Assembly (NCBI GenBank): GCA_964408735.1
Contig: CAYPAX010000011.1
Coordinates: 369-64,368, forward strand
DNA from: an uncultured Rhodospirillaceae bacterium
GTDB lineage: Bacteria > Pseudomonadota > Alphaproteobacteria > UBA7887
Reading direction: 5' to 3'
Length of the DNA stretch: 64,000 bases
Part shown: positions 12,767 to 56,329 of the stretch, piece by piece
How positions within the stretch are numbered: the stretch's first letter is position 1
Layout: every line of letters begins with the position of its first letter
Notes under the pieces: generated by a model
Seen by the model: the letters and a program-made list of their open reading frames with translations, nothing else
The model's database searches: none
What the model was told of the DNA's origin: nothing
Translations under genes and position numbers: made by a program

Positions 12767-13432
12767 ATGACACGACGATCGGACGAGCGCTGGGCGGTCT
12801 ACTTCGTGCCCGAGCCGGACGGGCAGCTGGCACAGCTCGGCCAGGCCTGGTTCGCGGCCTATGACCGCACGCCATATCTGGCCTCGCCCCAGCGCTACGG
12901 CTTCCATGCCACCCTGAAGGCGCCGTTCCATTTGCGGGCAGACGCGACGGCGGACGGCCTGCGGCTCAGCGCCCGGCGACTGGCAATGCGTATCGAGCCC
13001 GTGGCGCTGCCGGGCCTGCAGGTGGCCGTCATGGGCCGCTATCTGGCTCTGATGCCCGAACGCCCCTGCCCGGCCATCGCCGAGCTGGCGCAAAGGCTGG
13101 TGGTCGGTCTCAGCTCCTTTCGCGCCCCCGCCCGGCGGCACTGGACCGGGCTGACGCCGCGCCAGCGCCACAATGCCCGGCAATGGGGTTATCCCTGGGT
13201 CGGGCGCGAATACCGCTTTCACATGACCCTGGCCGGGCCTTTTGCGGGCCGACCGGATGCGGCCTGGCATGCGCGGGCGCGGCGGCATTTCGCGCCGCTC
13301 GCCGGGCAGAGCGTGCACATCGGCACGATCTCGCTTTGCCGGCAGCCGGCGGCCGGGGTGCATTTCTCCGAGGTCGTGCGCCTGCGGCTTGGCGGGGGCT
13401 TGCGCAAGGCAGGGTCGCACAGTGTAAGCTGA
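12767..13432 (+). CDS. DUF1045 family 2H-phosphoesterase-like protein
   Basis: RYGFHATLKAPF and YRFHMTL, two H-x-T motifs; start chosen at ATG 12767. Confidence 0.85.
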   Translation: MTRRSDERWAVYFVPEPDGQLAQLGQAWFAAYDRTPYLASPQRYGFHATLKAPFHLRADATADGLRLSARRLAMRIEPVALPGLQVAVMGRYLALMPERPCPAIAELAQRLVVGLSSFRAPARRHWTGLTPRQRHNARQWGYPWVGREYRFHMTLAGPFAGRPDAAWHARARRHFAPLAGQSVHIGTISLCRQPAAGVHFSEVVRLRLGGGLRKAGSHSVS

Positions 13433-13482
13433 CGGTCTCTCTCGCCCGGGTTTGGGGAGGGACAGCAGGAGCCATCAACACC

Positions 13483-16400: not shown

Positions 16401-16755
16401 GGATGCGGTCGCTGCTATGGGTGATGCCCTGGCATATATCGAGGATACGAACGAGCGTTGGTTCGAGGCGGAGACGAACCGAATAAGCGGAGAGCTGTTG
16501 CTCATTCTTCCTGATCCTTGTCTCGAAGAGGGAGAGCGCTGTTTCCGCAAGGCCGTTGAAGTGGCTCAGGGCCAGTCCAACAAAGGCTGGGAGCTGCGCG
16601 CCGCCACCTCCCTCGCCCGCCTCTGGCAGTCCCAGGGCAAGAGCCGGGAAGCCCACGACCTCCTCGCCCCCGTCTACGGCTGGTTCACGGAAGGCTTCGA
16701 TACAGCCGACCTGAAGGAAGCCAAGGCGCTGTTGCAGGCGCTGGAGGCAGCCTAA
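13483..16755 (+). CDS. SAM-class III nucleotidyl cyclase-AAA/STAND NTPase-TPR protein
   Basis: SAM (WLEGLGL...LKEMGIPIGPRRKIL), cyclase (MFCDLVGST, LGDG, NLAARLQ), Walker A GEPGIGKS, Walker B LLIFED, TPR tail ending FTEGFDTADLKEAKALL; AGGAG RBS before ATG 13483. Confidence 0.9.
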   Translation: MAEAPGAIRGWLEGLGLGQHAEAFEAQEIDLDALADVTEGDLKEMGIPIGPRRKILRAIAELGTAAQTAPAPARPQEAERRQITVMFCDLVGSTALSEKLDPEDLRSLMQDYQKACGGVIERYEGHVAQYLGDGLMTYFGWPRAHEDDAERAVRASLEIVEAVGTMELQVRIGVATGPVVVGETGAGDASVPKLAVGETPNLAARLQGLASADEIVVGPSTRRLLGGTFELDDLGEQALKGIVEPVPAHRVTGIAATEGRFEAQHQYLTPLVGREAEMAMVMARWEQACAGEGQVIVLGGEPGIGKSRITQAFRERVEDEPHTRLRYQCSPYHTNSALHPVIEQIERAAGFTRDDEPDNKLNKLDKLEQLIPNGAGRALIASLLSLPVERYAALAMSPQKQKEETLRMLAEQVTALAADTPVLLIFEDAHWIDPTSQELLDLVVPMVAAHRVLAVITHRPEYTPPWTGRGHVAPLALTRLGRAEAAAMVARVSDKPLPDDVLDQIVAKTDGVPLFVEELTKTVVEGGIQTADSIPETLQDSLMARLDRLMTVKDVAQTAACIGREFSQELIVAVSPLDTAALEDAIQQLVTAELIFRADANYVFKHALVQDAAYNSLLRSKRQQIHGVIAEALQDLFSDIRDIEPELVAQHYTEAGSGSDAISWWIAAGKIAIERMAMVEALAHLERALAINESLSPNSRNDRQELEIRNALGVAHTAVNGWASEKIFESLSPAVSIAKRLNDSEALLPLLWGLALKDTCQANFDTAHGWISNMVMDTQSDPISSLAITGHSMGSGLYFMKGDNALARYHGDRAIAEYDPDRHGSVVSVINHDPRIFALLWESHFLWALGYPDQAARASDDALEYAHELDHVFMRGMALTTACGAYIYRREPEMVLRRTEEALVLAREHDLPIFEFTAREWGCWALLQAGRAREAYEAAKQAADEWEAMQGRIQVPFMRSVMSLALAEMGEVEDAVAAMGDALAYIEDTNERWFEAETNRISGELLLILPDPCLEEGERCFRKAVEVAQGQSNKGWELRAATSLARLWQSQGKSREAHDLLAPVYGWFTEGFDTADLKEAKALLQALEAA

Positions 16756-29384: not shown

Positions 29385-29812
29385 GCAACAGCCTGCCAAG
29401 TCTTGAAGTGGCGCGCAAGCGACCTTGGCCACCGCGCATCACGGCCTTTACCGAGCCGTTTTGGCAAGCGCTTAGCGATAGCCGGCTCACCACGACGCGC
29501 TGCACGGCCTGCGAGCTGCCGACATTCCCGCCCAAGCCCTACTGCCCTTCATGCTGGTCGCAGAACATGCGCTGGATAGCGCTATCCGGACATGGCCGGC
29601 TCTATTCGCGCACCGTGATCCATGTGGTCCCAGCGGATTTTGCAGAAGAGGCACCGTTGCACAACGGCATTGTCGATCTCGACGAAGGCCTGCGCGCGGC
29701 CGCCCGCTTGATCGGAGATACGCCCATTCCGCTGGACACCGCCGTCGAAGCGGTAGTGTTGCGTTACGAAGACGGGCCGCTGTTCGCATTTCGGCTGGCG
29801 TCCGCCGCCTGA
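29381..29812 (+). CDS. DUF35 Zn-ribbon/OB-fold protein
   Basis: RCTAC...PPKPYCPSC, G.LYSRTVIH; 4-bp overlap with the thiolase-like gene. Confidence 0.88.
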   Translation: MSNSLPSLEVARKRPWPPRITAFTEPFWQALSDSRLTTTRCTACELPTFPPKPYCPSCWSQNMRWIALSGHGRLYSRTVIHVVPADFAEEAPLHNGIVDLDEGLRAAARLIGDTPIPLDTAVEAVVLRYEDGPLFAFRLASAA

Positions 29813-31221
29813 AGCGCTTTATAGACCACCTGGGCCTCGGCAGGTGGCTTCAAGGATGGCTTGTCCGCCGATTGAATTCTCTGCGCAAACGCTTCCAACC
29901 GCGACGGTTCCAGATTCACTGCCTGGGCCAAATTGCGTAAGCCGATGGCAGGATCGCGGCACAACAGGTCATGATCGAAGAACACGACATCACTGCGATG
30001 GTGGCGCAAGATATATCCGTAGACATCCGCCCAGTAATGCAGCCAGTAGTCCACGGTTAGGGGCGAATCTCCGCCTCCCGGTTCGGAATCGCCGAGGAGA
30101 AACGGCCGCATGTTCGCACCAAACTCGAAATGCCCGAGCCAGGTCATATATCGCAGGCTAAACGGATCCCGGGCATGCAGCTCCAAAAAGTTCAGATGTT
30201 GCCGCAACAGCGATTGAGCGTGATCGACCGGGTTGCGGAACGGCACCAGCACAATGGCATCTGGAAAAGCCTTCTTGAGCGCGCCGATGCGCAGGACATT
30301 GTTGTTGTTCTTCGACAGGTACCTGCTCTCACCCGACGTGTCGGAAGCGGCGACTACGTTTCGAACGTAATGGCGGAATTCGCTGATCGTCTCGTCGTCG
30401 GGCGCATGCGGGCACGATCCGGCCTTCCGCAAGAAGTCCTGCCGCCCCGCCGTTAGCCAGAAAACCTCCTCGAACGCCTCCGGACTGTCATAGCCCACTT
30501 CTATGCCGTCGCCATGAGCCCGCTCCTTGCGAATGTCGCCTGAGCGAAGCCCCGACGACAGGCGCGACCAAAGCAGCGGCGCATGCACGAACGGCATGTT
30601 CCGATAGGTCAAACTGGAAAACGCCCCCGTCGAATACAACGCTTCCAAGACGATGGTCGTGCCCGAGCGCGCCAGGCCAGCGACGAAAACGGGTCTAGGG
30701 GACGGAGCCGCTTTGCCCTTGCCGAGGCTGATATCGATGTCCAGCGCAACGCGGCGCAGAAAGGGGCTGTCCAGTGCAAATGCGTGAAACGCTCTCTCCA
30801 GGAAATTATAGGCGCTGCCGGTCTTGTTTTGCCGTCCATCCCATGCGAAGTACAGGCAGCCAAGCAACAGGGCACAGAGATTTAGTTGCCAGTGCAACAT
30901 GCGAGATAGCACCTTTGCCGGATCGCCGAGAAACGGCCACAAAACGACAAAACTTGCAGCGCCGAATGCCACAAGCAAAATGAGTAAGAAAACGAGAATC
31001 CGCGAGCTTTCGAGAAATACACTGCCCGCATAGGACGGCAGCACCCGCTCCTTCCAATGATCCGATATTCGCCGAGATGTGATTGTGGCAATCGACTTGC
31101 GGAGGGTTCGCCGTAGTGAAAGGACGGCGGGACGGAGCGGCAGGAGGCGGAGCAGCGAGATCGCGGCTGCCAGCCCGGCGACGGCAGCCAGGCCATCCAG
31201 AAGCAGATCAGTCGGCGTCAA
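29764..31221 (-). CDS. Membrane-anchored PAPS-dependent sulfotransferase
   Basis: 5'-PSB VFVAGLARSGTT, KNN, 3'-PB FRNP.DHAQS; N-terminal TM helices. Confidence 0.85.
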   Translation of the reverse strand: MTPTDLLLDGLAAVAGLAAAISLLRLLPLRPAVLSLRRTLRKSIATITSRRISDHWKERVLPSYAGSVFLESSRILVFLLILLVAFGAASFVVLWPFLGDPAKVLSRMLHWQLNLCALLLGCLYFAWDGRQNKTGSAYNFLERAFHAFALDSPFLRRVALDIDISLGKGKAAPSPRPVFVAGLARSGTTIVLEALYSTGAFSSLTYRNMPFVHAPLLWSRLSSGLRSGDIRKERAHGDGIEVGYDSPEAFEEVFWLTAGRQDFLRKAGSCPHAPDDETISEFRHYVRNVVAASDTSGESRYLSKNNNNVLRIGALKKAFPDAIVLVPFRNPVDHAQSLLRQHLNFLELHARDPFSLRYMTWLGHFEFGANMRPFLLGDSEPGGGDSPLTVDYWLHYWADVYGYILRHHRSDVVFFDHDLLCRDPAIGLRNLAQAVNLEPSRLEAFAQRIQSADKPSLKPPAEAQVVYKALQAADASRNANSGPSS

Positions 31222-31435
31222 GCTTGTCCTCCGCCGACTTCACGGACTTCGACATCTTCTTCAACATGCGTTTGACGGGGTACCAGACGAGTCCCACGGT
31301 GAGCAACACGACGGCAGCCAAAATGCCTATCACGGTGCCGACCGCCCCCAGCCCGAGGCCGGGGCCGAGATAAGCGAACGCCGTGGCAGGCGACATGAAT
31401 ACGATTGCGGCTGCCAGAGCCGTTGAGCGAATCAT
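31208..31435 (-). CDS. Small membrane protein with AFAYLGPG motif
   Basis: Signal-like N-terminus, YLGPG, TM helix and basic tail; overlaps the sulfotransferase start. Confidence 0.7.
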   Translation of the reverse strand: MIRSTALAAAIVFMSPATAFAYLGPGLGLGAVGTVIGILAAVVLLTVGLVWYPVKRMLKKMSKSVKSAEDKLDAD

Positions 31436-31654
31436 CGAAGATCTCGCCTGAGGGGACATCCCGACATTTCCACCTGACCCCTCATGAATGAAGGCATTAC
31501 GTTCACGTACCAGGACTTTAACTCAGCCCAACTGAAGGTCACTGCAACAGCATTCCTACGGCACGACTTTTCAGCCAATATCATCAACGCCAATTCACGG
31601 TTCGGCAAGAGCCTATGACGAACGAAAATCCCCTTGAAATCAGGGAAAACGGAT

Positions 31655-33001
31655 ATGCGAAATTCCGAAAAAATTAAACCCGAGTCATCCCGTTTGATAT
31701 CTCTGGTCTCCGCCGCCCTTATTCTATTGATTGTTTCGTTTGGGTTCGGGATGCATTCCGGGCACAGTCATAATTCCGTTTACGACCTCATTCTGTCCCT
31801 CAAAAAGACGCTGGAGCTTACCTATCGCCATGTCATGAATGTGCGGGACGAGATTCTCTTCTCGGACGTCGATGCCAATGAACCGGCTATCACGACGATC
31901 TTTCCGGATCGTTTGAACGCAGGCCTGATATTGCTGGCGGGGATGGACGCGAAAAGCCGCAACACCATACGTGTCGTCACGCGCGACGGAACGCTGGTCC
32001 ATGATTGGCAGCCCGACTGGTTCGAAATCTGGGGCGACAGGGGAGCATTCCCGGACTCCCGTTGGATAGGCTCGCAACCTGGCTCGTTCGTTCACGGCAT
32101 CGAGATGCTGCCGTCCGGCGATATCGTTTTCAACTTCGAGCATTTGAGCACCGTGCGCATGGACCCATGCGGCGAGGTGGTATGGAAGTTGGAGAACCTA
32201 GGTCATCATTCGGTTCATCTCGCCGAAGATGGCATGCTCTGGGTGCCTGCCGAGACCTATTACGAGCAAGAGCCGACAGGTCAGCGGAACCACGAGGCGC
32301 CGTTGCGATCCTGGACTTTGCAAAAGATATCACCGGCAGGAGAGATACTCGAAACACTCGATGTCATAGATATCCTGGAGATGAACGATCTGCACGGGCT
32401 GCTGTTCCTGTCGTCGTTGGAGAATGACGAGACGGTGGTTTCCGGCGATACGCTTCACTTGAACGATATCGATATCTTCCCCGCCGCCTTGCAATCCGAG
32501 ATCTTCTCACCCGGCGACATCATGTTCTCGCTGCGGAACATAAACACGGTGATCGTGATAGATGCCGAGACCCACCAGGTAAAATTTCGCGCAACCGGAC
32601 AGTTTCTCCGTCAACACGACCCGGATTTCGCCCCAGGCGACCGAATATCGCTGTTCGACAATCGCACTATGCTGCCCGCCCGGGGACAGGCTTGGACCGC
32701 CAGCCGAATACTCGAATTGGATACACGTAGCGGCGAGGCCACGGTCATATCCGATATTGACGGAGATGCGGCGTTCTCTACGGCAATCATGGGGACCCAT
32801 CAGCGCCTGGAGAATGGCAATATTCTCGTTGTCTCGGCGCGAGAGGGACGAATATTGGAAATCCTTCGGGATGGCTCGCTGGCATGGGAATTTCAGCACC
32901 GTGTCGACGAAGGCCGAAACGGCCTGGTGACGATTGGGACGCTGTTGCCGCCGGAGATGGATGAAGCTTTTTTTGCCGGGCTGGCTGCGGCCTGCGACTA
33001 G
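31655..33001 (+). CDS. Arylsulfotransferase (ASST-like beta-propeller)
   Basis: N-terminal TM; HHSVH, HLNDID, RQHD and GTHQRLENGNILV motifs. Confidence 0.82.
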   Translation: MRNSEKIKPESSRLISLVSAALILLIVSFGFGMHSGHSHNSVYDLILSLKKTLELTYRHVMNVRDEILFSDVDANEPAITTIFPDRLNAGLILLAGMDAKSRNTIRVVTRDGTLVHDWQPDWFEIWGDRGAFPDSRWIGSQPGSFVHGIEMLPSGDIVFNFEHLSTVRMDPCGEVVWKLENLGHHSVHLAEDGMLWVPAETYYEQEPTGQRNHEAPLRSWTLQKISPAGEILETLDVIDILEMNDLHGLLFLSSLENDETVVSGDTLHLNDIDIFPAALQSEIFSPGDIMFSLRNINTVIVIDAETHQVKFRATGQFLRQHDPDFAPGDRISLFDNRTMLPARGQAWTASRILELDTRSGEATVISDIDGDAAFSTAIMGTHQRLENGNILVVSAREGRILEILRDGSLAWEFQHRVDEGRNGLVTIGTLLPPEMDEAFFAGLAAACD

Positions 33002-33056
33002 AGCGGCCGGGCATAAGAGCCTATTCTGCTTACGTGGCAATGACGAGGGATCGACA

Positions 33057-34412
33057 ATGAACCTGTCCAGACTGTTGGCGGCGCGGGCCGAGGCCGGCGA
33101 GCCGGTGCGAGCTGGCATTATTGGCGCCGGCAAGTTCGGCACCATGTTTCTGGCCCAGGCCCGGCTGACGACCGGCCTGCAAGTGCTCGGCATTGCAGAC
33201 CTCGACGTGGCAAAGGCAAAGACCAATTGCCGTGGTGCCGGTTGGAGCGAAGAGCAACTCGCCGCGCCGGACCTCGATAGCGCTGCGAAGACAGGCGCAA
33301 CGCATGTCGGCGGCGACGCGCAGGCCTTGCTGTCCCACCCGGCGCTTGAGGTGCTGATCGAGGCCACAGGCGATGCGCGCATCGGCATTCGCCATTGTCT
33401 GGCCGCCATCGACAACGGCAAGCACGTCATCATGGTCAATGTCGAGGCGGACGTGGTGGCCGGGCCCCTGCTGGCGCGCCGCGCCGAGCGCGCCGGTGTC
33501 GTCTACAGCCTTGCCTGGGGCGACCAGCCGGCCCTCATCGCCGAGCATGTGGACTGGGCGCGGGCTTGCGGCTTTAGCGTGGTCTGTGCCGGCAAGGGCA
33601 CGCGCTATCACCCGGACTTCCACCGCTCCACACCCGACACGGTCTGGGACAACTTTCATTTCGGACGTGAGACGGCGGAGCGCGGCGGCATGAATCCGAA
33701 GATGTTCAACTCGTTCATCGACGGCACCAAGTCCGGCATCGAGATGACGGCGGTATGTAACGCCACGGGCCTGACGCCGCAGCCCGATGGACTGTCCTTC
33801 CCGCCCTGCTCCCAGGGAGAGCTGGCCGAAGTGCTCAAGCCCAAGGCCGCCGGCGGCTGCACCAACCATGCCGGCACGACGGAGGTGGTGTCATCCCTCC
33901 ACCGTGACATGACGCCGGTCGAGAACGACTTGATGATGGGCACTTATGTGGTCATCGAAGGAGACAACGATTATGTGCGGCACTGCTTCGAGGAATACCG
34001 CATGCTGCCGGACGCCAGCTTCCACTACGCCGCGCTATACAGACCCACCCACATGATCGGTCTCGAACTCGGCATATCCGTCGCCTCGGCGGCGCTGCGG
34101 GGCGAGCCGACGGGGTCGCCGACGGGCTTCCGCTCCGATGTGGTGGCCTGCGCCAAGCGCCCCCTCAAGAAAGGCGAGATGCTGGATGGCGAGGGCGGCT
34201 ACATGGTCTGGGGCAAGCAGGTGCCGGCGTCGGAGTCCCTTGCCATGGGCGGCCTGCCGCTGGGCCTTGCCGGCGAGGTCGCCCTGACCCGCGACATCGC
34301 CGAAGGCGAATTGCTGACCTGGTCCGATGCTGCGATCGACGATAGCGATGCGGCGGTCCGCGTTCGCCGCGAGATGGAAGCGGCTTTCGGGCGCAGCAAT
34401 ACAGCCGTGTGA
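33057..34412 (+). CDS. NAD(P)-binding homoserine dehydrogenase-like oxidoreductase with C-terminal SAF domain (COG4091-like)
   Basis: GAGKFG, MVNVEAD, GDQPA, MFNSFIDGTKS, KGEMLDGEGGY.VWG. Confidence 0.85.
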   Translation: MNLSRLLAARAEAGEPVRAGIIGAGKFGTMFLAQARLTTGLQVLGIADLDVAKAKTNCRGAGWSEEQLAAPDLDSAAKTGATHVGGDAQALLSHPALEVLIEATGDARIGIRHCLAAIDNGKHVIMVNVEADVVAGPLLARRAERAGVVYSLAWGDQPALIAEHVDWARACGFSVVCAGKGTRYHPDFHRSTPDTVWDNFHFGRETAERGGMNPKMFNSFIDGTKSGIEMTAVCNATGLTPQPDGLSFPPCSQGELAEVLKPKAAGGCTNHAGTTEVVSSLHRDMTPVENDLMMGTYVVIEGDNDYVRHCFEEYRMLPDASFHYAALYRPTHMIGLELGISVASAALRGEPTGSPTGFRSDVVACAKRPLKKGEMLDGEGGYMVWGKQVPASESLAMGGLPLGLAGEVALTRDIAEGELLTWSDAAIDDSDAAVRVRREMEAAFGRSNTAV

Positions 34413-34419
34413 ACGGCTC

Positions 34420-35229
34420 TTATACCGGCTGATAGACGCCGCGATGCCCGTCCACGCGCTTGAAGGATTCGGTAACGCCGATCACCGTTTCCGAACCGCC
34501 AAGGAAGAGATAGCCATCGTCCGTCATGCGCTTGCGAATATTGTCCAGGACGCGCTTTTTCGTATCCGGATCGAAATAGATCAGGACATTGCGGCAAAAT
34601 ACCGTATCGAATTTTCCCAAGGCGTCGAAGCTTTGCAGCAAATTGAGATTTCGGAATGTCACCATGGCACGAATGGCACTATCGATCTGCCAGGTCTCAT
34701 TGACCTGTTTGAAGTGGTCCATCAACATCTTGACGGGCAAGCCGCGCTGCACTTCGAACTGAGAATATAATCCGACCTTGGCTTTGCCCAACGCTTCGTT
34801 CGACAGGTCCGTCGCCACAATATCGTTTCGCCAGCCAAGCAGCTCCGCGGCCGCATCCTTGAGGATCATGGCGAGGGAATACGGCTCCTGGCCCGTGGAG
34901 CAGGCCGCGCACCAGATGCGCATCTTCTTTTGTGTGTGCCGCGCCTCGCGCAGCGACGGCAGCACGAAGTTCTTGAACTCCTCAAAGGGACGGGTATCGC
35001 GGAAGAAAAACGTCTCGTTCGTGGTCATCGCCTCGACCACGTCGTTGATCAGCGCTTCCGAGCCATTGCCGCGAACCTTGGTAATGAGCTGATCCACCGA
35101 TTCGACACCATGGCCCCGCGTCAGTGGCATCAGGCGCGATTCCAGCAGGTAGGTCTTTTCCTTGGTCAGGACCAGTCCCGACCTGTCCCGGATCAGAGTG
35201 CTGATGAACTCGAAATCCTGGGGTGACAT
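34420..35229 (-). CDS. cheR: Chemotaxis methyltransferase
   Basis: TTNETFFFRD, WCAACSTGQEPYS, FCRNVLIYF. Confidence 0.95.
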   Translation of the reverse strand: MSPQDFEFISTLIRDRSGLVLTKEKTYLLESRLMPLTRGHGVESVDQLITKVRGNGSEALINDVVEAMTTNETFFFRDTRPFEEFKNFVLPSLREARHTQKKMRIWCAACSTGQEPYSLAMILKDAAAELLGWRNDIVATDLSNEALGKAKVGLYSQFEVQRGLPVKMLMDHFKQVNETWQIDSAIRAMVTFRNLNLLQSFDALGKFDTVFCRNVLIYFDPDTKKRVLDNIRKRMTDDGYLFLGGSETVIGVTESFKRVDGHRGVYQPV

Positions 35230-35231
35230 GA

Positions 35232-36413
35232 CTACTTGGCCCCAAACACTTTTAGAACAAAGGCAGCGATGTCATCCTTCGGCAGCACCGCGCAACACAA
35301 GCCCGCCGTCGCCACGGCTCCGGGCATCCCCCAAACAATGCTGGTCGCTTCGTCCTGGGCCACAGTGCAGCCGCCCAGTGCGCTCAGCTTACGCACGCCC
35401 TCCAAACCGTCATGCCCCATGCCTGTCATGATGAGGGTCAGCACCTTGCTGCCATAGACCTCGGCCAAGCTGCGCAACATGGGATCGACAGCGGGCCGGC
35501 AGAAATTCTCCGGCGGCGACTGGGTAAGGCGCAGGCGCCCGACCTTGCCATCGGTCTCGGCAATCATGTGATAATCGCCTGGTGCGACATAAATGCGGCC
35601 GCCCGAGATCACATCGCCGTCGGCCGCCTCGTCGGCCGGGATGCCGGTCACGCGCTGCAGCCGTTCGGCAAAGATTTTCGTGAATGTCGGCGGCATGTGC
35701 TGAGTGATCAGGATGGGGTAGCGGAAGCCGCGAAAATCCTTGAGTAGATCCAACAAGGCCTGCGGCCCGCCGGTCGAAGAGCCGATCGCGAGTATTTGAG
35801 GGGGGATCGTCGGCGCCTTGGTGAGAACGATGGACGCGCCGCCATAGAGAGACTTCTTAACGGCACCCTCGGCCTTGGGCGCCGCCGCCGTCTCTTTGGC
35901 GCCCGCCGCCGTCGCCGCCGCTCGGCCGCTACCAGCCCGAGACTTGCCGTCGCCCTCGGAGGGTTTGCGCGCCTTACCGCCATGCTGGCCGTGCACACGC
36001 ACTTTTTCCACGACCTCACGCTGAAAGTCGTAGGCGCCGCCGATCCGCCCGGTGGTCGGTTTCGGCACGTAATCCGCCGCCCCGTCGTCAAGCGCCTTCA
36101 AGCTGATGGAAGCGTTCCGATCGGTCAGCGTCGAGGCCATGATGACTTTTACGGAGGGATCGACCTTGAGGATTTTCGGCAGCGCCTCCAAGCCATCCAT
36201 CACCGGCATCTCGATATCGAGGATGACGATATCCACATCGCCTTTGCCGATCCGATTTACCGCAGCCTTGCCGTTGGGCACCGCATCGACAACGGTAATG
36301 TCGTCTTCCTGTTCGAGGAATCGTCGCAAGATTCCGCGAACCACTGCCGAATCGTCGCAAATTAGGACCTGAATGGAACCCGATGGCGCGGCGGAGTTCG
36401 ACACGTCAGTCAA
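35232..36413 (-). CDS. cheB: Chemotaxis methylesterase response regulator
   Basis: REC plus GSSTGGP, QHMP and MTGMG.DG. Confidence 0.95.
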   Translation of the reverse strand: MTDVSNSAAPSGSIQVLICDDSAVVRGILRRFLEQEDDITVVDAVPNGKAAVNRIGKGDVDIVILDIEMPVMDGLEALPKILKVDPSVKVIMASTLTDRNASISLKALDDGAADYVPKPTTGRIGGAYDFQREVVEKVRVHGQHGGKARKPSEGDGKSRAGSGRAAATAAGAKETAAAPKAEGAVKKSLYGGASIVLTKAPTIPPQILAIGSSTGGPQALLDLLKDFRGFRYPILITQHMPPTFTKIFAERLQRVTGIPADEAADGDVISGGRIYVAPGDYHMIAETDGKVGRLRLTQSPPENFCRPAVDPMLRSLAEVYGSKVLTLIMTGMGHDGLEGVRKLSALGGCTVAQDEATSIVWGMPGAVATAGLCCAVLPKDDIAAFVLKVFGAK

Positions 36414-36774
36414 TCAGCCCGACTTGGGCAAACTTCGACTGAACGATGTCGCCGTCGAAGGGCTTCATGATGTACTCGTTTGCACCCATGGACATGGCCT
36501 CGACGATATGCGCCATGTCATTTTCCGTGGTGCAAAAAATCACCTTTGGCGCATCCCCGCCGGGCATCTTGCGCAACGCGGTTATGAACTCCAGCCCGTT
36601 CATGACGGGCATGTTCCAATCGAGCATGATGGCATCGGGCATCGCTGCCTCACATGCCTCCACTGCCTTCTCGCCATTCTCGGCTTCGATCACCTCGAAA
36701 CCAATTTCTTCGACGATACGCCGAGCGACCGTCCTTACCACTTTGGAGTCGTCAACGACCAGACAGGTCTTCAT
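36406..36774 (-). CDS. cheY: Chemotaxis response regulator
   Basis: Single REC domain: VDD, LDWNMP, KPF. Confidence 0.93.
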   Translation of the reverse strand: MKTCLVVDDSKVVRTVARRIVEEIGFEVIEAENGEKAVEACEAAMPDAIMLDWNMPVMNGLEFITALRKMPGGDAPKVIFCTTENDMAHIVEAMSMGANEYIMKPFDGDIVQSKFAQVGLID

Positions 36775-36849
36775 GAGGCAACCGTCATAGAAAAAGGGGA
36801 GTATAGCTTACGCGCGAAGGTAACGTCAGGACCGTGCCTCGGCAGCAGT

Positions 36850-37350
36850 CTAGTCGCCGAAGTCCAGTATTCTCCCCACGTCTAGCACTGCCAGCAACTC
36901 CGCGTCGAGTCTGTATATCCCAACGGAAACCGCGCGCCAAACCGGATCCAGGGTGGATGGGTTTCTCTCGATCCAATCGTCCGGGAGACTCATGACGTCG
37001 CCGACGGTATCGAATATCAAGCTGTAGAGTTCGCCTTCGTATTCGACCACCACACTCATGGGCTTCTGGTCGCTGTCCAACGGCTCCAATCCCAGACGAA
37101 CGCGCATATCGATTGCCGTGACGATACGGCCACGCAAATTCAGCGACCCCGCCACCTCCGGCCGCGCCAAAGGTATGTTCGTGATGGCATCAGGTTGGAA
37201 AATATCCTGAACCGACAGAATGGGCAGGCCAACTTTTTGACCGGCGACCGCCATGGTCACGAAATCGCTGCTGGCAACCTGATCCGCGTCCAGCTCATGC
37301 AGATCGTTGCTGGATGATGGTGTCTTTTCCAATGTCTGTACGTCGTTCAT
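36850..37350 (-). CDS. cheW: Chemotaxis coupling protein
   Basis: GSLNLRGRIVTAID motif. Confidence 0.93.
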   Translation of the reverse strand: MNDVQTLEKTPSSSNDLHELDADQVASSDFVTMAVAGQKVGLPILSVQDIFQPDAITNIPLARPEVAGSLNLRGRIVTAIDMRVRLGLEPLDSDQKPMSVVVEYEGELYSLIFDTVGDVMSLPDDWIERNPSTLDPVWRAVSVGIYRLDAELLAVLDVGRILDFGD

Positions 37351-40136
37351 GCGGCAACCTCCTCCTTGGACGCGATCGTCTTGCTGATGGCGCTCATCAG
37401 GGTGTCGCGATCGAATTTGGCGACGAAATCGTCAAAGCCCACACTACGCCCCATGTCGAAGTTCTCAGGGGTTGCGTAAGCCGAAAGCGCTATCATCGGG
37501 GTGCGCTGCCATGGCCCGCGGCCTCGGCATTCCCGAGCGAATTCGAAACCGTCGGCGCCGGGCATCTCGATATCGCTGATGATGAGGTCGAATTCCTGGC
37601 CCCTGTCGCGCCTCGCCAGCGCCTCACTGACGTTCTCGGCAACCTCGACATCATAGCCTTCGATCCTGAGCAGTGGCTGCACGAGATTGCGGAAGAATTG
37701 GCTGTCATCGACGAGAAGGACACGTGGGCTAGGCTTCGTAGCGCTCTCGCTTGCCGTGGCATGGGCGCCGTACCAGTCGCCATAGGCCAAATTCAGGAAA
37801 TGCGCGATATCCAGCACCGTGTGGGTGCGGCCATCGAGCAACGCTCCGCCGATAAAGCCCGGCGTCTTGTCAGTCGCATATTCGATGTTGAGGACTTCTT
37901 CGACGATATCGTTAATCTGATCGACGACGAGGCCCATCTTGTGCTGCTCGTCGGCGAACACGAGCACCGGCTTGATGCCGGATCCACCGTAGGGGTTGGA
38001 CCCGTCTACCAAGACCAGAGGCATAAGCTCGCCGCGATACTGGATCACCGACAGCCCCGACGAAGACTCGACCTTGGCAAGGTCGACCTCTTCCAGCCGC
38101 GATATGAGGCTCAGCGGCACGGCTTTCGGCTCGTCCCCGGCGGCCTCGAACAACAGCATCGATACCGCTACGTCCTCGCCGGCAACATCCTTTTGCAACT
38201 GTTTGCCGTCCGTGTCCGCGTCTTCGCCCATTTGCATGTCGCCAACCAGGCCTGACAGCCCGTTGGGATCGAGGATCATCACGACACTGCCGTCACCAAG
38301 GATGGTATTGCCCGAGAACAAGGTGATGTTCCGCAGAATGGGCGAGGTCGGCTTGACCACGATCTCCTCTGTATCGAAGACACGGTCGACGATCACGCCG
38401 AAACGCTGCGCGCCCACATTCACGACAATGATGAACAGCTCGGAATCGGCATCGATCGGCTTGCCGTCGTCCAGGTTCAGCGCGGCGCTCAATGTGATCA
38501 GCGGCAACAGCCTGTCACGCAACCGCAACACGGGCGTTTCGTTGACCTTTTCGATCCTGTGCTCGCTGCGAGGCGAGGCCCGCACCAATTCGATAACGCT
38601 GATCTGCGGCATGGCGAACCGCTCACCACCAACTTCGACGATCAACGCCTGAACGATCGCCAGGGTGAGCGGGATCTTGATCGTGAAGGTCGAGCCGGTC
38701 CCTTCGATCGACTTCATCTCCACGGTGCCACCGATCTTTTCGATATTGGTGCGGACCACGTCCATGCCGACACCGCGACCGGAAACATTGGTCACTGCCG
38801 TTGCGGTCGAGAGCCCCGCATTGAAGATATATTGCTGGATCTGATCGTCGCTCATGGTGTCGAGCTGGGATTCGGTCGCTAAGCCATTTTCCAATACTTT
38901 GGCGCGTACCCTCTCGACCGAAACGCCGTTACCGTCGTCCTTGATCTGAATGATGATCTGTCCGCCCTCGTGGAAGGCACGAAGGGTGACAACACCGGTT
39001 TCCGGTTTGCCGGCCGCTACCCTGTCTGCTGGGCTTTCGAGGCCGTGGTCGGCCGAATTGCGTACCATATGCGTGAGCGGATCCTTGATCAGCTCAAGCA
39101 CTTGGCGATCAAGCTCGGTATCGGCGCCGACCATCTTAAGCTCGATCTTCTTGTCTAGCTCGAGAGCAAGGTCGCGCACGATCCGCGGCAGCTTCGCCCA
39201 GGCATTGCCAATGGGCTGCATCCGCGTCTTCATGACGCTTTCCTGAAGCTCGGTAGTGATGTGGTTGAGGCGCTGCAGAGGTGCAGCGAACTCGCTGTCC
39301 TCCATATGGCGGACCATCTGCAGCAATTGATTGCGCGACAGCACGAGCTCGCTGACCGAGGTCATCAAGTCTTCCAGCAGCCCGACATGGACGCGGATGG
39401 TCTGGTTGGCGACGCCTCCGTCCTTGGCGCCTTGCTTGTCACCATCGCCGCCGGCACGCTTGGCCGGCGTCTTTGCCGCCGGCTTCTTTTCCGCCGCAGC
39501 CGGCGCGGGCTCAGGTGGCGGCGCCGGTTCGGGTGCGACCGCTTCAGCCTCTTGCCCGGTTTGCCCGGCAGGGACCGGCACAAAACCGTGCTCGTCTTCT
39601 TCCGCAGCCGGCTCCGGTGCCACATCCACGCCTGTCTGATCGGCGGGCACGGGAACGAAGCCGAACTCATCCGGTTCGTTGGCAGCAGGTGCGGGCTCCG
39701 GCTCGGGCTCGGGCTCGGGCTCTGGCGCAGCACTCTCGGCATCGCTCATCGAGGTGCCGCCACTGTCAGCAAAAGCGTTCAGCCGCTTTATCAGCTCGGC
39801 ATCGTTGCCTTCGGGCTCGGCCTCCGTGTCTTCCAGGATCGCCAAAAGCTCCTTGATCTGGTCAAGGCATTCCAGGATCAGCGTCACCCCATCTTCGTTG
39901 ACGGTTATCTCGCCGTCCCTGAACTTGCCGAGGATGTTTTCGCCGGCATGGGCAACCGACTCAAGCCTGGGCAACCCCAGAAAGCCGCAGGTGCCCTTAA
40001 TCGTGTGCACCAGCCGGAATATGTTGCCAAGCAGTCCAGGATCATTGGGATCCTGCTCCAGCTTCACCAGCTCCATGTCGAGCTGATCCAAGCTTTCTCC
40101 AGTCTCTGTGAGAAATTCGACTAGCAGATCATCCAT
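37347..40136 (-). CDS. cheA: Chemotaxis kinase CheA with two CheW-like domains and a C-terminal REC
   Basis: Hpt [28 protein letters not shown], terminal REC (VDD, SDIEMP). Confidence 0.95.
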
Positions 40137-40373
40137 AATTTCGCTCCGCACCATCCGGCCATTTTGCCGGGCACCCTCGCTCCACAATTGCCGGGACACA
40201 CGACGAATTGTCCTCAGCCATCTTCGGCGTTCATGCTTGTATTTAGACCACGCGAGCGGGTAAGCAACAGCCAGACCGATGGGAATTCATCCGCCTGCCC
40301 GCTTGTGACGGTTTCCGTCTTGTTATATACGGTCATATATAGCCGATTGCCGGCTGGCAGGGAGACGTCAGGC

Positions 40374-41363
40374 ATGATCGATGGCTTCGGGCGTCAGGTC
40401 ACATATTTACGGATATCGGTGACCGACCGATGTGATTTCCGCTGCCTCTACTGCATGGCGGAAGACATGACGTTCCTGCCCAAGACCGAGGTTCTCAGTC
40501 TCGAGGAACTCGACCGGGTAGCCAGTGCCTTCGTGGAGCTTGGGGTGCGCAAATTGCGCCTGACAGGCGGCGAGCCACTGGTCCGCAAGAATGTCATGGG
40601 CCTGATCCGCAATCTCGGACGGCATTTGGATTCCGGCGCTCTTGACGAGCTTACGCTCACCACCAACGGCAGCCAGCTCGCGCGCTTCGCCGATGAGCTC
40701 TACGACTGCGGCATCCGGCGCATCAACGTGTCGCTCGATACGCTGGATGCGGAGAAATTTGCCGAGATCACCCGTTGGGGCCGCATCGAACAGGTCATGG
40801 AGGGCCTGGCCGCGGCGAAAGCCGCCGGACTGGCCATAAAGATCAATGCCGTCGCTCTCAAAGCCGTCAACGAGCACGAGATCGGCGACATGGTGGCCTG
40901 GTGTGGCGACGAGGGCTACGACATGACCCTCATCGAGACCATGCCACTCGGCGACATCACCTGCCAGCGCACGGACCAATACCTGCCGCTTTCCCTGGTT
41001 CGCAAACGGCTGCGAAAGACCTGGACGCTGACAGAAACCGATTATCTCTCGGGAGGGCCTGCCAGATATGTCCGCGTCGAGGAAACCGGAAGGCGCCTCG
41101 GTTTCATAACCCCGATGACCCATAATTTCTGCGAATCCTGCAATAGGGTGCGGTTGACCTGCACCGGCACCTTGTTCATGTGCCTTGGCCAGGAAGACGC
41201 CGTCGACCTACGAACGCCGTTGCGCGCCAGCGAGACCAACGGCCCGCTTATTGACGCCATCCACGAGGCCATCGACCGCAAGCCCAAGGGACACGATTTC
41301 GTCATCGACCGGCGCACAGAGCGGCCGGCATTGTCGCGCCATATGAGCCTCACGGGCGGTTAG
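40374..41363 (+). CDS. moaA: GTP 3',8-cyclase
   Basis: [23 protein letters not shown]...MCLG, C-terminal GG. Confidence 0.95.
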
Positions 41364-41382
41364 CCGGAGTAGGCCCCTGCCC

Positions 41383-42150
41383 TTGAGCGCCTGCAAGATC
41401 GCATTCGTCGCGACCGACAACGCCGAGGCCCAGGCGGCTTTCGACGAGCTCTCGGCCGCCTATGGAAATGTCGCCCCGGAACAGGCGGAGGTCGTTGTCG
41501 CCCTGGGCGGCGATGGCTTCATGATCGAGACGCTTCATCGCTTCATGGACCTTTCCGTGCCGATCTATGGCATGAACCGCGGCACCGTCGGCTTCCTCAT
41601 GAATGTTTATGAGACCGATGGCCTGCCCGAGCGTATCAATTTGGCTGAGCAGTCAGTGCTGAAGCCGTTGCACATGCGCGCCACGGATTCGGAAGGTCAC
41701 GTCGCCGACGCTCTTGCCATCAACGAGGTATCGCTGCTGCGGCAAAAACGCTACGCCGCGCATCTGGCCGTATCGGTGGACGGCCGAACGCGGCTTGAAG
41801 AACTTGTCTGCGATGGTGTGATCGTGGCAACGCCCGCCGGCAGCACCGCCTATAACCTGTCCGCGCACGGGCCAATCCTGCCGCTCGGCTCGCACTTGCT
41901 CGCATTGACACCGATTTGTGCCTTTCGGCCAAGGCGTTGGCACGGCGCCCTGTTACCGGAGACGGCGACCGTGGTAGTCGATATTTTGCGCGCAGACCAT
42001 CGCTCCGTCAGCGCGACCGCCGATTTTACAGAAGTCCGCGACGTCGTTAGGGTCGAGGTCAGGCAAGATCCCGACAGACAACTGCGCCTTCTGTTCGACC
42101 AGGAGCACAATTTGGAAGAGCGAATCCTGCGCGAGCAATTCGTTCCCTAG
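41383..42150 (+). CDS. nadK: NAD kinase
   Basis: [20 protein letters not shown]. Confidence 0.93.
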
Positions 42151-53182: not shown

Positions 53183-53257
53183 GCCGCCGTAGCTCAGGGG
53201 TAGAGCACACCCTTGGTAAGGGTGGGGTCGGGTGTTCAATTCACCCCGGCGGCACCA
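53183..53257 (+). tRNA. tRNA-Thr (GGT)
   Basis: GCCGCCG acceptor stem, CACCC/GGGTG anticodon stem with loop TTGGTAA, TTCAATT T-loop, CCA; 75 nt. Confidence 0.97.
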
Positions 53258-54567
53258 CCTTTCATGAGTCCTAGCACCATATCGGTCGTGGCGCTCCAGG
53301 CCTCGGCAACATCGCCCGTATAGGCACTCGGACCGAGGATCGCCTCGATGGTCTCGAGCATGACGGTGCGGAACAACTCGTAGTGCCCCTCCTCGACGCC
53401 ATATGCCACGTGCTTCGCCCCGAGGTCGTGCAGACCCAGCGCCAGGTGATTGCTCCGCCCGAGCCCGAAAACCACCCCCCGCAGAATATATTCCAGCATC
53501 TGCCCCTGGGCCTCGACCCCGTTTACGAACATCTTTTCAAGCGCCGGGTCGAGTACAAACAGACGTGCGTAGAACGCCTCGGCAAAGCCGCTGTCGGCGC
53601 CTAAGAGAGGCTGCATGGTACGCTGGACGACCAAGAAATTGTCGAGACTCAGAAAGCCGTCGACGGCGTAGACGCGAATGCTTTCCTTGCGGCCGCGCAA
53701 TCGAGTCATCTGGGTTTCGGCTATCGAAAGCGTATCCGCGGGCAAATGCTCGATAACGTCCTGCGACACCAGCAGGTTCGACTCCACCGACTTGGTCAGC
53801 GTTTGAATGCGGCTTGCCGTGTTCACGTTATCCCCGACGACGGAAAACTGACGGCGCACAGGATGGCCGACCTTGCCGACGACCAGCGGGCCGTAATGGA
53901 CGCCGATGCCGATGGCAATGCCGACACCAAACTCCGCCTCCAAAGTCTCGTTGAGCGCGTTCAGGGAATCGCGCATGCCCAGCGCCGCCCGAATCGCGGC
54001 CTCGCAGGCACGGCGTGCCGAGCCGCCGTCGAGCCCGAACAGCCCGGAGATCTCGTCACCGACATATTGGTAGATGATGCCGCCATTGACGAGGATCGGC
54101 TCGCCGACGGCAGCGAAGAACCGGTTGAGGATATGCACCACGTCGAATGCGCTGTGGGCTTCGGCAAAGCGGGTGAACCCACGCATGTCGCAGAACAGCA
54201 GGGCGACGGTCCGCTCCTCGCCAGTGTCGCCACCAACAGTCTCGAGCTGGATCTGGCTGGTATCGGCGCCACGCAGCACGATGCGCTCGACTGTCGCCTC
54301 ACCCAGCAGACGCGTCTGACACGCCAGGCGCACGGAAGCGTCCCAGCCCCGCGACTCGGCGATCTCTTTTTCCCGCTCCGAGCGCGGGCTAAGGTTCGCC
54401 GACCCCTCCAAAACTCGCACGCGACACGTAGTACAACGCGCATTGCCCCCGCACTCGCGCCAGTGCGGGATCTTGTTGGACACCGAAATGTCCAGAAGCG
54501 TTTGCTCGCCGGCGCTTGTTTTTACGGTCTTGTTCAGGCAGGCGTAGCGCAGATGCGTAAGCGTCAA
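53236..54567 (-). CDS. 2Fe-2S ferredoxin-class III nucleotidyl cyclase-globin fusion
   Basis: CGGNARCTTC...RLAC; LFCDMRGFT, YVGDE, VGDNVNTASR; globin AFYARLF, EKMF, AQGQML, LGAKHVAYGV. Confidence 0.85.
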   Translation of the reverse strand: MTLTHLRYACLNKTVKTSAGEQTLLDISVSNKIPHWRECGGNARCTTCRVRVLEGSANLSPRSEREKEIAESRGWDASVRLACQTRLLGEATVERIVLRGADTSQIQLETVGGDTGEERTVALLFCDMRGFTRFAEAHSAFDVVHILNRFFAAVGEPILVNGGIIYQYVGDEISGLFGLDGGSARRACEAAIRAALGMRDSLNALNETLEAEFGVGIAIGIGVHYGPLVVGKVGHPVRRQFSVVGDNVNTASRIQTLTKSVESNLLVSQDVIEHLPADTLSIAETQMTRLRGRKESIRVYAVDGFLSLDNFLVVQRTMQPLLGADSGFAEAFYARLFVLDPALEKMFVNGVEAQGQMLEYILRGVVFGLGRSNHLALGLHDLGAKHVAYGVEEGHYELFRTVMLETIEAILGPSAYTGDVAEAWSATTDMVLGLMKGGAAGVN

Positions 54568-54751
54568 TCCACTCTCCAGCTTCTCGCCAAGCCAAGCTAC
54601 CTCAACACGCGGGATATGCCCACGATGGATGTTGAGGCGAGTTAGACGCTCTCACACCTACACACATCTCCGTGAGAGTCTGGGCTGGTGCGCCCATCGA
54701 CAGTATCTTTCCTTTTAACGACCAGTGGCATTTGGGGGTGGGTATTGGTAG

Positions 54752-56329
54752 ATGACAGCAAATTCAGGGGAGCGCCCGAGCCAGCCGAGTCCTGATCAGC
54801 CGGTGAGCGTCGGTGGGCCTCGGCTGTTCATCGCGAGCCGCGTCGGCATGCGGCTGGCGCTGGCGGTATTCCTCACCATCGTGCTGGTCGAGGCGACGAT
54901 CCTCGTGCCTTCCTACCTCATTCAGAAACAAGCCTTGGTGGACCGCCTGACCGACGGCGCTTTTGCCGCGGCAGATGCAGGGCTCGGCGCCCATGGCCAC
55001 GACCGCGACCGCGACCTTCGCGTCTACGCCGCCATTCTGGCCCATGGCAACGACATGATCATGGGGGCCAGCCTGTTTCACGGTGACGGCTCGCAAATCA
55101 GCACCACCGGTGATGCGCCGGCGTTGGATTTCGCCGCGACGCAAGACGGGACCATCCAGCAAAGAAGCGGCGACGGCGACTGGCTGGACATTGCCTGGTT
55201 GAAAGAGCAAAGCGGCTTGCCTTTCATATTGATCATGCGGCTCGATGCCCGTGGTATCGACGAAGAGCTCATGGCCTATGTTGGGCGCGTCATGGCCATC
55301 GTGCTGTTGTTGTCGGTGGTGGTTTGCGCAACAACCATGCTGATCTTCGACTGCATGGTTCTGTCGCCGATCCTGCGTCTCGGCCGGCGTCTCAACGCGG
55401 TGCGCCAGGATCCCGTCAATGCCACGGCGCTTTTGATCAAGGTCAACCGCAAGGATGAGATCGGCGAGCTGCAAGAAGCCTTCAATCATACCGTGACCGG
55501 CCTGTCCGACACGGTCAACATGCTCGAAGAGGCCCTTAACGCCCTCAAGCAGGCCAAGACGGATCTCGAACACAAGGTGACAGACCGCGAGGCGGCACAG
55601 GAAGCCGCGGCGGAGGCCAATCACGCCAAGTCACAATTCCTCGCGGCCATGAGCCACGAATTACGCACGCCGCTCAATGCCGTGCTCGGCTTCGCGCAAC
55701 TGCTGCAGTCCTATTCGGACAATCCCCTGACCAAGGAACAGCAGGAATATGTCGAGCACATCCTGAGCGGCGGCAATCATCTGCTGACGCTGGTAAACGA
55801 GGTTCTCGACCTCTCGAAAATCGAATCCGGCCGCGTGGATCTCGAAATGCAACACGTCCAACCGACAATGGTCATAAACGAGGCCATCGCCATGGCCCAG
55901 CCATTAGCGGAACAACGTGGCGTGTCCTGGAAAATCGATCTCGACGGCGCCTCGCATCACACCGTCTCGGCCGACCCGGACCGGCTCAAGCAGGTGCTGC
56001 TGAATCTGCTCTCCAATGCGGTCAAGTACAACCGTGACAACGGCTCGGTATCGGTAGCGGCCGCCCTCACCGATGACGGCCAGCTCCGCATGAGCGTGAC
56101 TGATACCGGGCCGGGCATTCCTGCAGCGGAATTCGACGGCGTCTTCGAGCCCTTCTCGCGCCTCGGTATGGAAAGCTCGACGATCGAGGGAACCGGCATC
56201 GGTCTGACCATCAGCCGCGAGCTTGTCGAGAGCATGGGCGGCAAGCTCGATTTCGAGAGTGCTGTCGGCCAGGGCACGACGTTCTGGCTTGAGCTTCCCA
56301 TCGACAAGCCCGCATCGAGCCCCGCATAA
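54752..56329 (+). CDS. Orphan membrane sensor histidine kinase (HAMP-HisKA-HATPase)
   Basis: AKSQFLAAMSHELRTPLN, NLLSNAVKY, DTGPGI, GTGIGL; no REC domain and no adjacent regulator. Confidence 0.92.
   Translation: MTANSGERPSQPSPDQPVSVGGPRLFIASRVGMRLALAVFLTIVLVEATILVPSYLIQKQALVDRLTDGAFAAADAGLGAHGHDRDRDLRVYAAILAHGNDMIMGASLFHGDGSQISTTGDAPALDFAATQDGTIQQRSGDGDWLDIAWLKEQSGLPFILIMRLDARGIDEELMAYVGRVMAIVLLLSVVVCATTMLIFDCMVLSPILRLGRRLNAVRQDPVNATALLIKVNRKDEIGELQEAFNHTVTGLSDTVNMLEEALNALKQAKTDLEHKVTDREAAQEAAAEANHAKSQFLAAMSHELRTPLNAVLGFAQLLQSYSDNPLTKEQQEYVEHILSGGNHLLTLVNEVLDLSKIESGRVDLEMQHVQPTMVINEAIAMAQPLAEQRGVSWKIDLDGASHHTVSADPDRLKQVLLNLLSNAVKYNRDNGSVSVAAALTDDGQLRMSVTDTGPGIPAAEFDGVFEPFSRLGMESSTIEGTGIGLTISRELVESMGGKLDFESAVGQGTTFWLELPIDKPASSPA

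Follow-up and report, generated by a model that had tools for sequence, protein, structure and literature searches.

What does a nucleotidyl cyclase respond to when the same chain carries a [2Fe-2S] ferredoxin at its N-terminus and a globin at its C-terminus? The question was raised by a gene on the minus strand of a contig from an uncultured Rhodospirillaceae bacterium (GenBank assembly GCA_964408735.1, contig CAYPAX010000011.1), of which a stretch of 64,000 nucleotides, hereafter the window, was analyzed. An earlier note, made from the sequence of this window, had read a three-domain open reading frame at 53236-54567, and both a check of the frame and the Pfam matches (Fer2, Guanylate_cyc and Globin) confirmed it. 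The protein most likely converts O2, nitric oxide (NO) or redox state into a cyclic-nucleotide signal. As to how this would be achieved, we consider it probable that a homodimeric cyclase is governed by the ligation and oxidation state of a haem, with the [2Fe-2S] domain either relaying electrons within the chain or providing a second redox input.

The complete coding sequence (53236..54567, minus strand) comprises 443 codons plus the stop and begins with TTG, 4 nt downstream of a Shine-Dalgarno motif read from the sequence (GGAGAG, 54572..54577, minus strand). This start codon is credible because the predicted N-terminus aligned with the N-termini of homologs in a 48-sequence alignment. Full-length homologs of the protein were found at E-values of 1e-120 to 1e-190, far beyond chance, and the protein-collection search returned a cluster representative (P0002) that was 100% identical to it. 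Eight DNA runs from marine or seawater metagenomes also contained the gene sequence in essentially identical form. A pseudogene or an artefact was rejected, given that the frame is intact, that it recurs identically in several metagenome runs and that all functional residues are kept.

The ferredoxin domain, located at residues 13-87 (54307..54531, minus strand), matched Pfam Fer2 with 39.7 bits (cut-off 21). Its four cysteines, C39, C45, C48 and C83, follow the spacing Cx5Cx2Cx34C (codons of C39-C48 at 54424-54453 and of C83 at 54319-54321, minus strand), which, along with the Fer2 score, identifies the domain as an adrenodoxin-type [2Fe-2S] ferredoxin. Conservation was measured in 48 diverse homologs and then in 185 distinct family members; the cysteine ligands were kept in 184-185 of the latter. 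A search of the PDB gave E. coli Fdx (1i7h), terpredoxin, putidaredoxin and adrenodoxin as the closest solved relatives. Terpredoxin, putidaredoxin and adrenodoxin pass single electrons to haem enzymes, namely cytochromes P450. The ferredoxin is joined to the cyclase by a linker (residues ~97-116; 54220..54279, minus strand) in which the secondary structure of an AlphaFold model showed a short helix at 100-110. Within it, E109 was invariant and L106 near-invariant in the 48-homolog alignment, and the linker may be regarded as a candidate signal-transducing element.

The central domain (residues 119-302; 53662..54213, minus strand) matched Pfam Guanylate_cyc (PF00211) with 74 bits (cut-off 21.9). 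Alignment to the cyclases Cya2 and OaPAC placed the metal-binding aspartates at D127 (54187-54189) and D171 (54055-54057), the transition-state pair at N249-R253 (53809-53823), and the two purine-site residues at Q167 (the Lys site, 54067-54069) and S242 (the Asp/Thr site, 53842-53844), all codons lying on the minus strand. In the family, D127 was present in 185/185 sequences, D171 and N249 in 183/185 each, and R253 in 184/185; C126, which adjoins the first metal aspartate, was invariant, and C188 was found in 179/185. Judged by these residues, the cyclase is catalytically complete. Its nearest relatives, in both sequence and fold, were Spirulina CyaC, Synechocystis Cya2, P. aeruginosa CyaB and photoactivated cyclases, with CyaC and Cya2 as the top Foldseek matches (template modelling (TM) scores of 0.85-0.90 on the target), and on both comparisons the domain is of the class IIIb type.

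The C-terminal domain is a 3/3 globin with helices A-H (residues 310-443; 53239..53640, minus strand), matched by Pfam Globin (PF00042) over residues 331-431 with 33.7 bits (cut-off 22). Its pocket residues Y333 (B10, 53569-53571), F347 (CD1, 53527-53529), Q354 (E7, 53506-53508) and H386 (F8, 53410-53412), all encoded on the minus strand, were each conserved in 185/185 sequences, as was Y389, and L358 (E11) and Y396 (G5) were mostly conserved. The profile match, seven modelled helices at 310-442 and the invariance of H386 and F347 assign the domain to the M/F lineage of 3/3 globins. When the family profile was compared with PDB sequences, 3s1i was matched at 5e-26 and the flavohaemoglobin 1cqx at 7e-19. 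The nearest globins were those of Methylacidiphilum infernorum (3s1i, 3ubc and 3wfw, the last with a Roadblock/LC7 signalling domain fused to its globin), followed by flavohaemoglobins, Vitreoscilla haemoglobin and plant non-symbiotic haemoglobins. When the globin part alone was searched exhaustively, the matches were mainly single-domain globins of 130-180 amino acids, multi-unit globins and members of the family matched at their C-terminus. These matches and the nearest relatives together fit an M/F-lineage globin that was recruited to the end of a cyclase. In a library clustered at 50%, the nearest globin relatives included giant multi-unit globins (P0122-P0129) of 1000-3690 amino acids with up to 14 globin repeats.

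Two familiar identities for a globin-bearing protein were considered and rejected. The best NCBIfam match was to the globin part of the NO-inducible flavohaemoprotein model NF009805 (36.5 bits vs. a cut-off of 432); since only this part matched and the protein has no flavin adenine dinucleotide (FAD)/nicotinamide adenine dinucleotide (NAD) domain, it is not a flavohaemoglobin (Hmp). Nor is it a globin-coupled sensor of the S family, as the globin is C-terminal, of the PF00042 type and without a Protoglobin match. No such match was reported at E <= 1 in the Pfam search of the protein, and no S-family (sensor) globin structure was named among the 60 best PDB profile matches.

Taken across the chain, the Fe-S ligands, D127, D171, N249 and R253 of the cyclase, and Y333, F347, Q354 and H386 of the globin were invariant in the 48 sequences and 99-100% conserved in the 185 members, which indicates that all three modules are under joint purifying selection. 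The features listed in the earlier note, i.e., the four Fe-S cysteines, the metal aspartates with the N...R pair, and a flavohaemoglobin-type globin with F332-Y333 at B9/B10, F347 at CD1, Q354 at E7 and H386 at F8, were all present, and its structural reading (three domains, all [2Fe-2S] ligands, a complete class III cyclase and a C-terminal flavohaemoglobin-lineage globin) held fully. An AlphaFold model of the monomer, computed from the family alignment, had a mean predicted local distance difference test score (pLDDT) of 91, no segment below 50, and a predicted TM score (pTM) of 0.88. Over a three-domain chain, such a pTM points to a compact fold with defined packing between domains. The last strand of the cyclase was modelled with high confidence as passing into the globin through a connector of approximately five residues.

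The source genome (4.58 Mb, 100% complete) provided a further context. The gene at 53236..54567 holds its only Pfam Globin domain, and no Hmp was found in the genome by the Pfam Globin search. A paralog in the same genome (G000:C29:33302-35041; L091 803-2542) lacks a globin and consists of a hydrophobic, His-containing N-terminal domain of ~270 amino acids, which had no Pfam match, followed by Fer2 and cyclase domains. In this paralog and its relatives, the Fer2-cyclase core lies behind a His-rich hydrophobic N-terminal domain of ~270-310 amino acids. Cluster 1 of Beltz et al. (2016) likewise combines a six-transmembrane cytochrome-b-like anchor, for which two haems were predicted bioinformatically, with Fer2 and a class IIIb cyclase (PMC4821796). 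Our protein resembles that cluster in its homologous Fer2-cyclase core (36-42% identity over residues ~20-305), in the same Cx5Cx2C motif, in C188, whose equivalent is found in the own-genome paralog, and in carrying a predicted haem module on the same chain. It differs in that the predicted haem module is N-terminal and membrane-bound in the cluster and a C-terminal soluble globin here, and in that the purine site reads Glu/Thr in four paralogs and Gln/Ser in our protein. Membership of cluster 1 was rejected, since only 12 residues precede Fer2 and there is thus no room for a membrane anchor. If the anchor of the paralog carries haem as predicted, a haem module, Fer2 and a cyclase form a recurring combination.

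Across six frames, this genome contains 148 Guanylate_cyc matches above the cut-off, many of them in frames of ~600 and ~1100 amino acids, vs. only eight cNMP_binding domains, so the receptor side of its cyclase load is unaccounted for.

From these observations, the following sequence of events can be proposed. The soluble, class IIIb-like cyclase would act as a homodimer, like other class III cyclases, and the globin, with its Tyr-B10/Gln-E7/His-F8 pocket, would bind haem b and constitute the sensing site. The state of the haem (deoxy, oxy, NO-bound or ferric) would be passed to the adjoining catalytic domain and would set the rate of cyclic-nucleotide synthesis; we infer both the direction of this regulation and any transfer of electrons to the haem. 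For the [2Fe-2S] domain, two roles can be envisaged. It could give single electrons to the haem, keeping it ferrous or resetting it after autoxidation or NO dioxygenation, and would in this way replace the FAD reductase module of a flavohaemoglobin. Alternatively, it could be a second redox input, acting on the cyclase through the short helical linker. In either case, the output would be a cyclic nucleotide that reports O2 or NO together with the reducing power of the cell. The earlier note had suggested either that two cofactors gate the cyclase or that electrons pass along an internal path, and both options are consistent with all observations, including the adrenodoxin type of the ferredoxin and the compact model.

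We favour a cyclase governed by haem state for several reasons. The cofactor, pocket and catalytic residues are strictly conserved together, and the fold was modelled as compact, with high confidence. Nearest to the globin are the haem-binding HGb globins of Methylacidiphilum, flavohaemoglobins and Vitreoscilla haemoglobin, and the ferredoxin belongs to a type of which some members donate electrons to haem enzymes. The genome has its only Pfam Globin here and no Hmp. In the membrane-anchored architecture, too, the Fer2-cyclase core is accompanied by a predicted haem module, and the globin-regulated cyclase HemAC-Lm of Leishmania major sets a precedent (PMC4534343).

Several points weigh against haem-governed regulation. 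Occupancy by haem b and by the [2Fe-2S] cluster is predicted from the ligands alone. The Glu-H23 of the flavohaemoglobin proximal triad was not conserved in the family, and the haem chemistry may therefore differ from that of NO dioxygenases. The AlphaFold model is that of a monomer, whereas the functional unit would be a dimer. No ferredoxin reductase or other partner was conserved as an adjoining gene in four inspected contigs or at 80 homolog loci. Sequence words of the gene were absent from the small metatranscriptomes of the same studies, a result that is uninformative. Moreover, pockets of the Tyr-B10/Gln-E7 type normally have a very high O2 affinity and fast NO dioxygenation, and a plain O2 sensor with such a pocket would be saturated in oxic seawater. 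Given this tight O2 binding, the physiological signal may be micro-oxia or NO rather than ambient O2, and in the case of NO, the cluster would reset the ferric haem.

A narrower version of this scheme, which we regard as unlikely, is a self-resetting NO/O2 sensor. Here, NO would oxidise the oxy-haem, the ferric state would switch the cyclase, and the [2Fe-2S] cluster would re-reduce the haem, so that cellular reducing power sets the duration of the signal; the output might be cGMP, mixed or otherwise not cAMP.

Among the rival explanations, the one that survives best makes the ferredoxin the primary sensor, with the redox state or integrity of its cluster (responding to electron flux, oxidants, NO or iron supply) controlling the cyclase via the linker and the globin as an accessory that supplies or withdraws electrons or adds a gas input. 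This is a real but rather doubtful possibility. It draws on the fact that another and more widespread architecture, which lacks the globin, has the same Fer2-cyclase core, that the regulatory domains of class III cyclases normally lie N-terminal of the catalytic domain, that the Fer2-cyclase linker has invariant residues, and that C188 of the cyclase is conserved both in the globin-bearing family and in the own-genome paralog. However, the globin pocket is as strictly invariant as the Fe-S ligands, and the connector of about five residues, modelled with high confidence, makes a passive appendage unlikely. This explanation overlaps with haem-governed regulation and differs from it only in which cofactor is dominant.

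Much less probable is that the protein is chiefly an enzyme of NO/O2 chemistry, i.e., a reductase-less flavohaemoglobin acting as an NO dioxygenase, in which the ferredoxin reduces the haem and the cyclase is mainly a dimerisation scaffold. The NO-inducible flavohaemoprotein as best NCBIfam match, the resemblance of the Tyr-B10/Gln-E7/Leu-E11/Tyr-G5 pocket to those of flavohaemoglobins, the adrenodoxin-type ferredoxin, and a genome without Hmp or another Pfam Globin would all agree with it. Yet the metal aspartates, the Asn, the Arg and the Gly-Asp motif of the cyclase are invariant in the 185 sequences, and a scaffold would not keep them; the Hmp model was matched far below its cut-off, and no NAD(P)H/FAD module occurs in cis or in conserved synteny. 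Finally, although globins without haem that serve as ligand-binding or protein-interaction modules (RsbR-type or photoglobin-type) exist in bacterial signalling (PMC8717448), such a globin beside an Fe-S cluster as sole redox cofactor is scarcely credible here, with His-F8, Phe-CD1, Tyr-B10 and Gln-E7 at 100% in the 185 sequences and the closest solved relatives all haem-bound.

We now turn to the product of the cyclase governed, as we propose, by haem state. The earlier note had reported that the Lys that specifies ATP is replaced by Gln (YQYVGD) and had therefore doubted that cAMP is the product. The replacement was borne out by alignment to solved cyclases, in which Q167 (iyQyvGD) fell where Cya2 has its GTP-specifying Glu (idEfmGD) and where OaPAC and an engineered Cya2 adenylate cyclase have Lys; at the partner position, S242 corresponds to Thr in OaPAC and Gly in Cya2. 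With Gln at this site, the protein has neither the Lys of an ATP-specific class III adenylate cyclase nor the Glu of a GTP-specific guanylate cyclase. Among the 185 members, the site was occupied by Gln in 154 (83%), His in 24 (13%) and Leu in seven (4%), and never by Lys or Glu, so the doubt over cAMP was justified family-wide. The partner site was Ser, Ala, Thr, Gly or Cys, the Ser of our protein being IIIb-like. Since the purine site is never Lys or Glu, the product is not readable from the sequence, and whether it is cAMP, cGMP or both cannot be predicted in this way. A precedent is M. tuberculosis Rv0386, an adenylate cyclase with Gln/Asn at the purine sites that is reported to make cGMP as a side activity (Castro et al. 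2005, FEBS J).

The own-genome paralog and three relatives (L008-L010) have Glu at the purine site and Thr at the partner site (NEFVGD / ITVVGD). Glu/Thr is a guanylate-cyclase signature, though the membrane-anchored Fer2-cyclase class has been called adenylate cyclases. These four paralogs hint that the ancestral Fer2-cyclase core may have been GTP-specific, and the Gln of the three-domain protein is one base change away from the paralog Glu.

The protein was also compared with other known systems. In HemAC-Lm, the globin is N-terminal. This Leishmania major protein is a class III adenylate cyclase under the control of a haem-globin, and its cAMP output rises when O2 binds (Sen Santara et al. 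2013; PMC4534343). Both proteins are soluble and join a haem-globin to a class III cyclase on one chain; HemAC-Lm is in contrast eukaryotic, without a ferredoxin and with the globin first, while our protein has the order Fer2-cyclase-globin, an M/F-lineage globin and Gln at the Lys site. Hmp, Vitreoscilla haemoglobin and the Methylacidiphilum globins HGbI, HGbIV and HGbRL (3s1i, 3ubc and 3wfw) share with it the lineage and Tyr-B10, Phe-CD1, Gln-E7, Leu-E11, His-F8 and Tyr-G5; Hmp also has a redox domain fused to its globin, and HGbRL a signalling domain. Unlike Hmp, with its FAD/NAD reductase, our protein has a [2Fe-2S] domain, a cyclase in between and the globin at the C-terminus, and Glu-H23 is unconserved.

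Globin-coupled sensors combine an N-terminal S-family (protoglobin-type) globin with GGDEF, methyl-accepting chemotaxis protein or kinase outputs, and globin classifications list flavohaemoglobins as the only chimeric F globins (PMC7475203). The globin-coupled sensors HemAT, DosC/YddV, BpeGReg and AfGcHK and the soluble guanylate cyclase follow the same logic as is proposed for our protein, with a gas-sensing haem domain in control of a second-messenger or signalling output. The order is, however, reversed here, with a C-terminal M/F globin instead of the N-terminal S-family globin of those sensors; soluble guanylate cyclase senses through H-NOX, not a globin, and neither it nor the globin-coupled sensors have an Fe-S domain. 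In sum, the protein lacks defining features of a canonical adenylate or guanylate cyclase, a flavohaemoglobin, a globin-coupled sensor and the Beltz cluster, and is still plausibly a haem- and redox-regulated cyclase.

How widespread this architecture is was assessed in proteins and in genomes. The top 120 matches in a collection of 5.8 billion proteins were all full-length relatives, nearly all of them with the three Pfam domains; one belonged to a Cyanothece metagenome-assembled genome (MAG), and some family members were machine-annotated as 'class 3 adenylate cyclase/hemoglobin-like flavoprotein'. In a scan limited to a single genome for each species, at least 500 relatives were found, and 79 of the 80 best loci were full-length, so that at least 79 species genomes carry a full-length copy, a lower bound taken from the best 80 of at least 500 loci. 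These 80 loci covered Alphaproteobacteria (Geminicoccaceae, Mesorhizobium sophorae and Rhodospirillaceae), Betaproteobacteria (several Variovorax), Gammaproteobacteria, many Bacteroidota (Algoriphagus, Echinicola, Maribacter, Flagellimonas, Christiangramia and Saprospiraceae), Rhodothermales, Myxococcales and Thermodesulfobacteriota. Among 41 relatives of the source genome, presence was patchy and most matched only the Fer2-cyclase part; one genome of the same family had a full-length copy with 38% identity. A same-genus ortholog (G002:C490:3069-4393; L006), with 83-86% identity, was split into two overlapping frames near residue 184-193, reflecting either a frameshift pseudogene or an assembly error.

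No description of a Fer2-cyclase-globin protein was found in the full-text literature or in globin and cyclase reviews, in which subscription coverage was incomplete, so that absence is not proof. The earlier note had treated the architecture as possibly uncharacterised; this stood insofar as no experimental or descriptive paper was found, and gave way insofar as the architecture is present in several phyla and already machine-annotated. The three-domain protein is a member of a large, widespread and unstudied family and not an oddity of one genome.

With regard to its surroundings, the gene is flanked on one side by the murA/DUF2948/hisG/hisD genes and on the other by a divergent HAMP histidine kinase gene (54752-56329). 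Neither the kinase nor hisD-hisG-DUF2948-murA recurs at other loci, and both were rejected as functional partners. When all neighbours of the 80 loci were clustered, none was common to more than 10, the few shared ones reflecting lineage-specific synteny, and the four homolog contigs inspected had unrelated gene contexts. The three-domain cyclase is a stand-alone gene. A divergent large-subunit catalase adjoins the homolog in a Rhodospirillaceae MAG (L004, 3678-5783), and a 186-amino-acid neighbour that appeared OsmC-like by eye was found at six Bacteroidota loci (L083 and others); such oxidative-stress neighbours are suggestive, but their counts are too low for a conserved context. The 184-bp intergenic region between the cyclase and the histidine kinase contains an inverted repeat of 7 bp (CTCTCAC-N16-GTGAGAG, 54649-54678), which could be an operator candidate, although so short a repeat may be due to chance.

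Elsewhere in the window, a second cyclase gene (13183-16755, plus strand) encodes 1190 amino acids with SAM, Guanylate_cyc and AAA_16 (STAND-like ATPase) domains, an architecture that also adjoins a homolog of the three-domain protein on another metagenome contig (L001). A stretch at ~29700-41400 has a G+C content of 0.57-0.62 vs. ~0.65 elsewhere and contains two sulfotransferase-family genes, a DRL-type oxidoreductase and MoaA, as well as a chemotaxis set of CheR, CheB and a CheA-CheW-REC hybrid.

Many microbes read O2, NO and energy state via haem- and redox-regulated second-messenger enzymes, and the known bacterial examples mostly make cyclic di-GMP or use H-NOX, PAS or sensor-globin domains. 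In the present family, a single class III cyclase chain carries both an adrenodoxin-type Fe-S domain and a globin of the flavohaemoglobin lineage, a combination that is strictly conserved. The family is experimentally accessible through its cultured carriers in Variovorax, Mesorhizobium, Algoriphagus, Maribacter and Christiangramia. Its general interest would lie in a new role of M/F globins as sensors, with a domain order reversed with respect to globin-coupled sensors, in a first experimentally supported function for Fer2, a domain found repeatedly in bacterial cyclases, and in the identity of the nucleotide that a cyclase with Gln, His or Leu at the purine site produces, which would possibly widen bacterial cGMP signalling. 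Should the self-resetting sensor prove true, the family would represent a bacterial NO-to-cGMP pathway, present in several phyla and built from parts unrelated to H-NOX and soluble guanylate cyclase.

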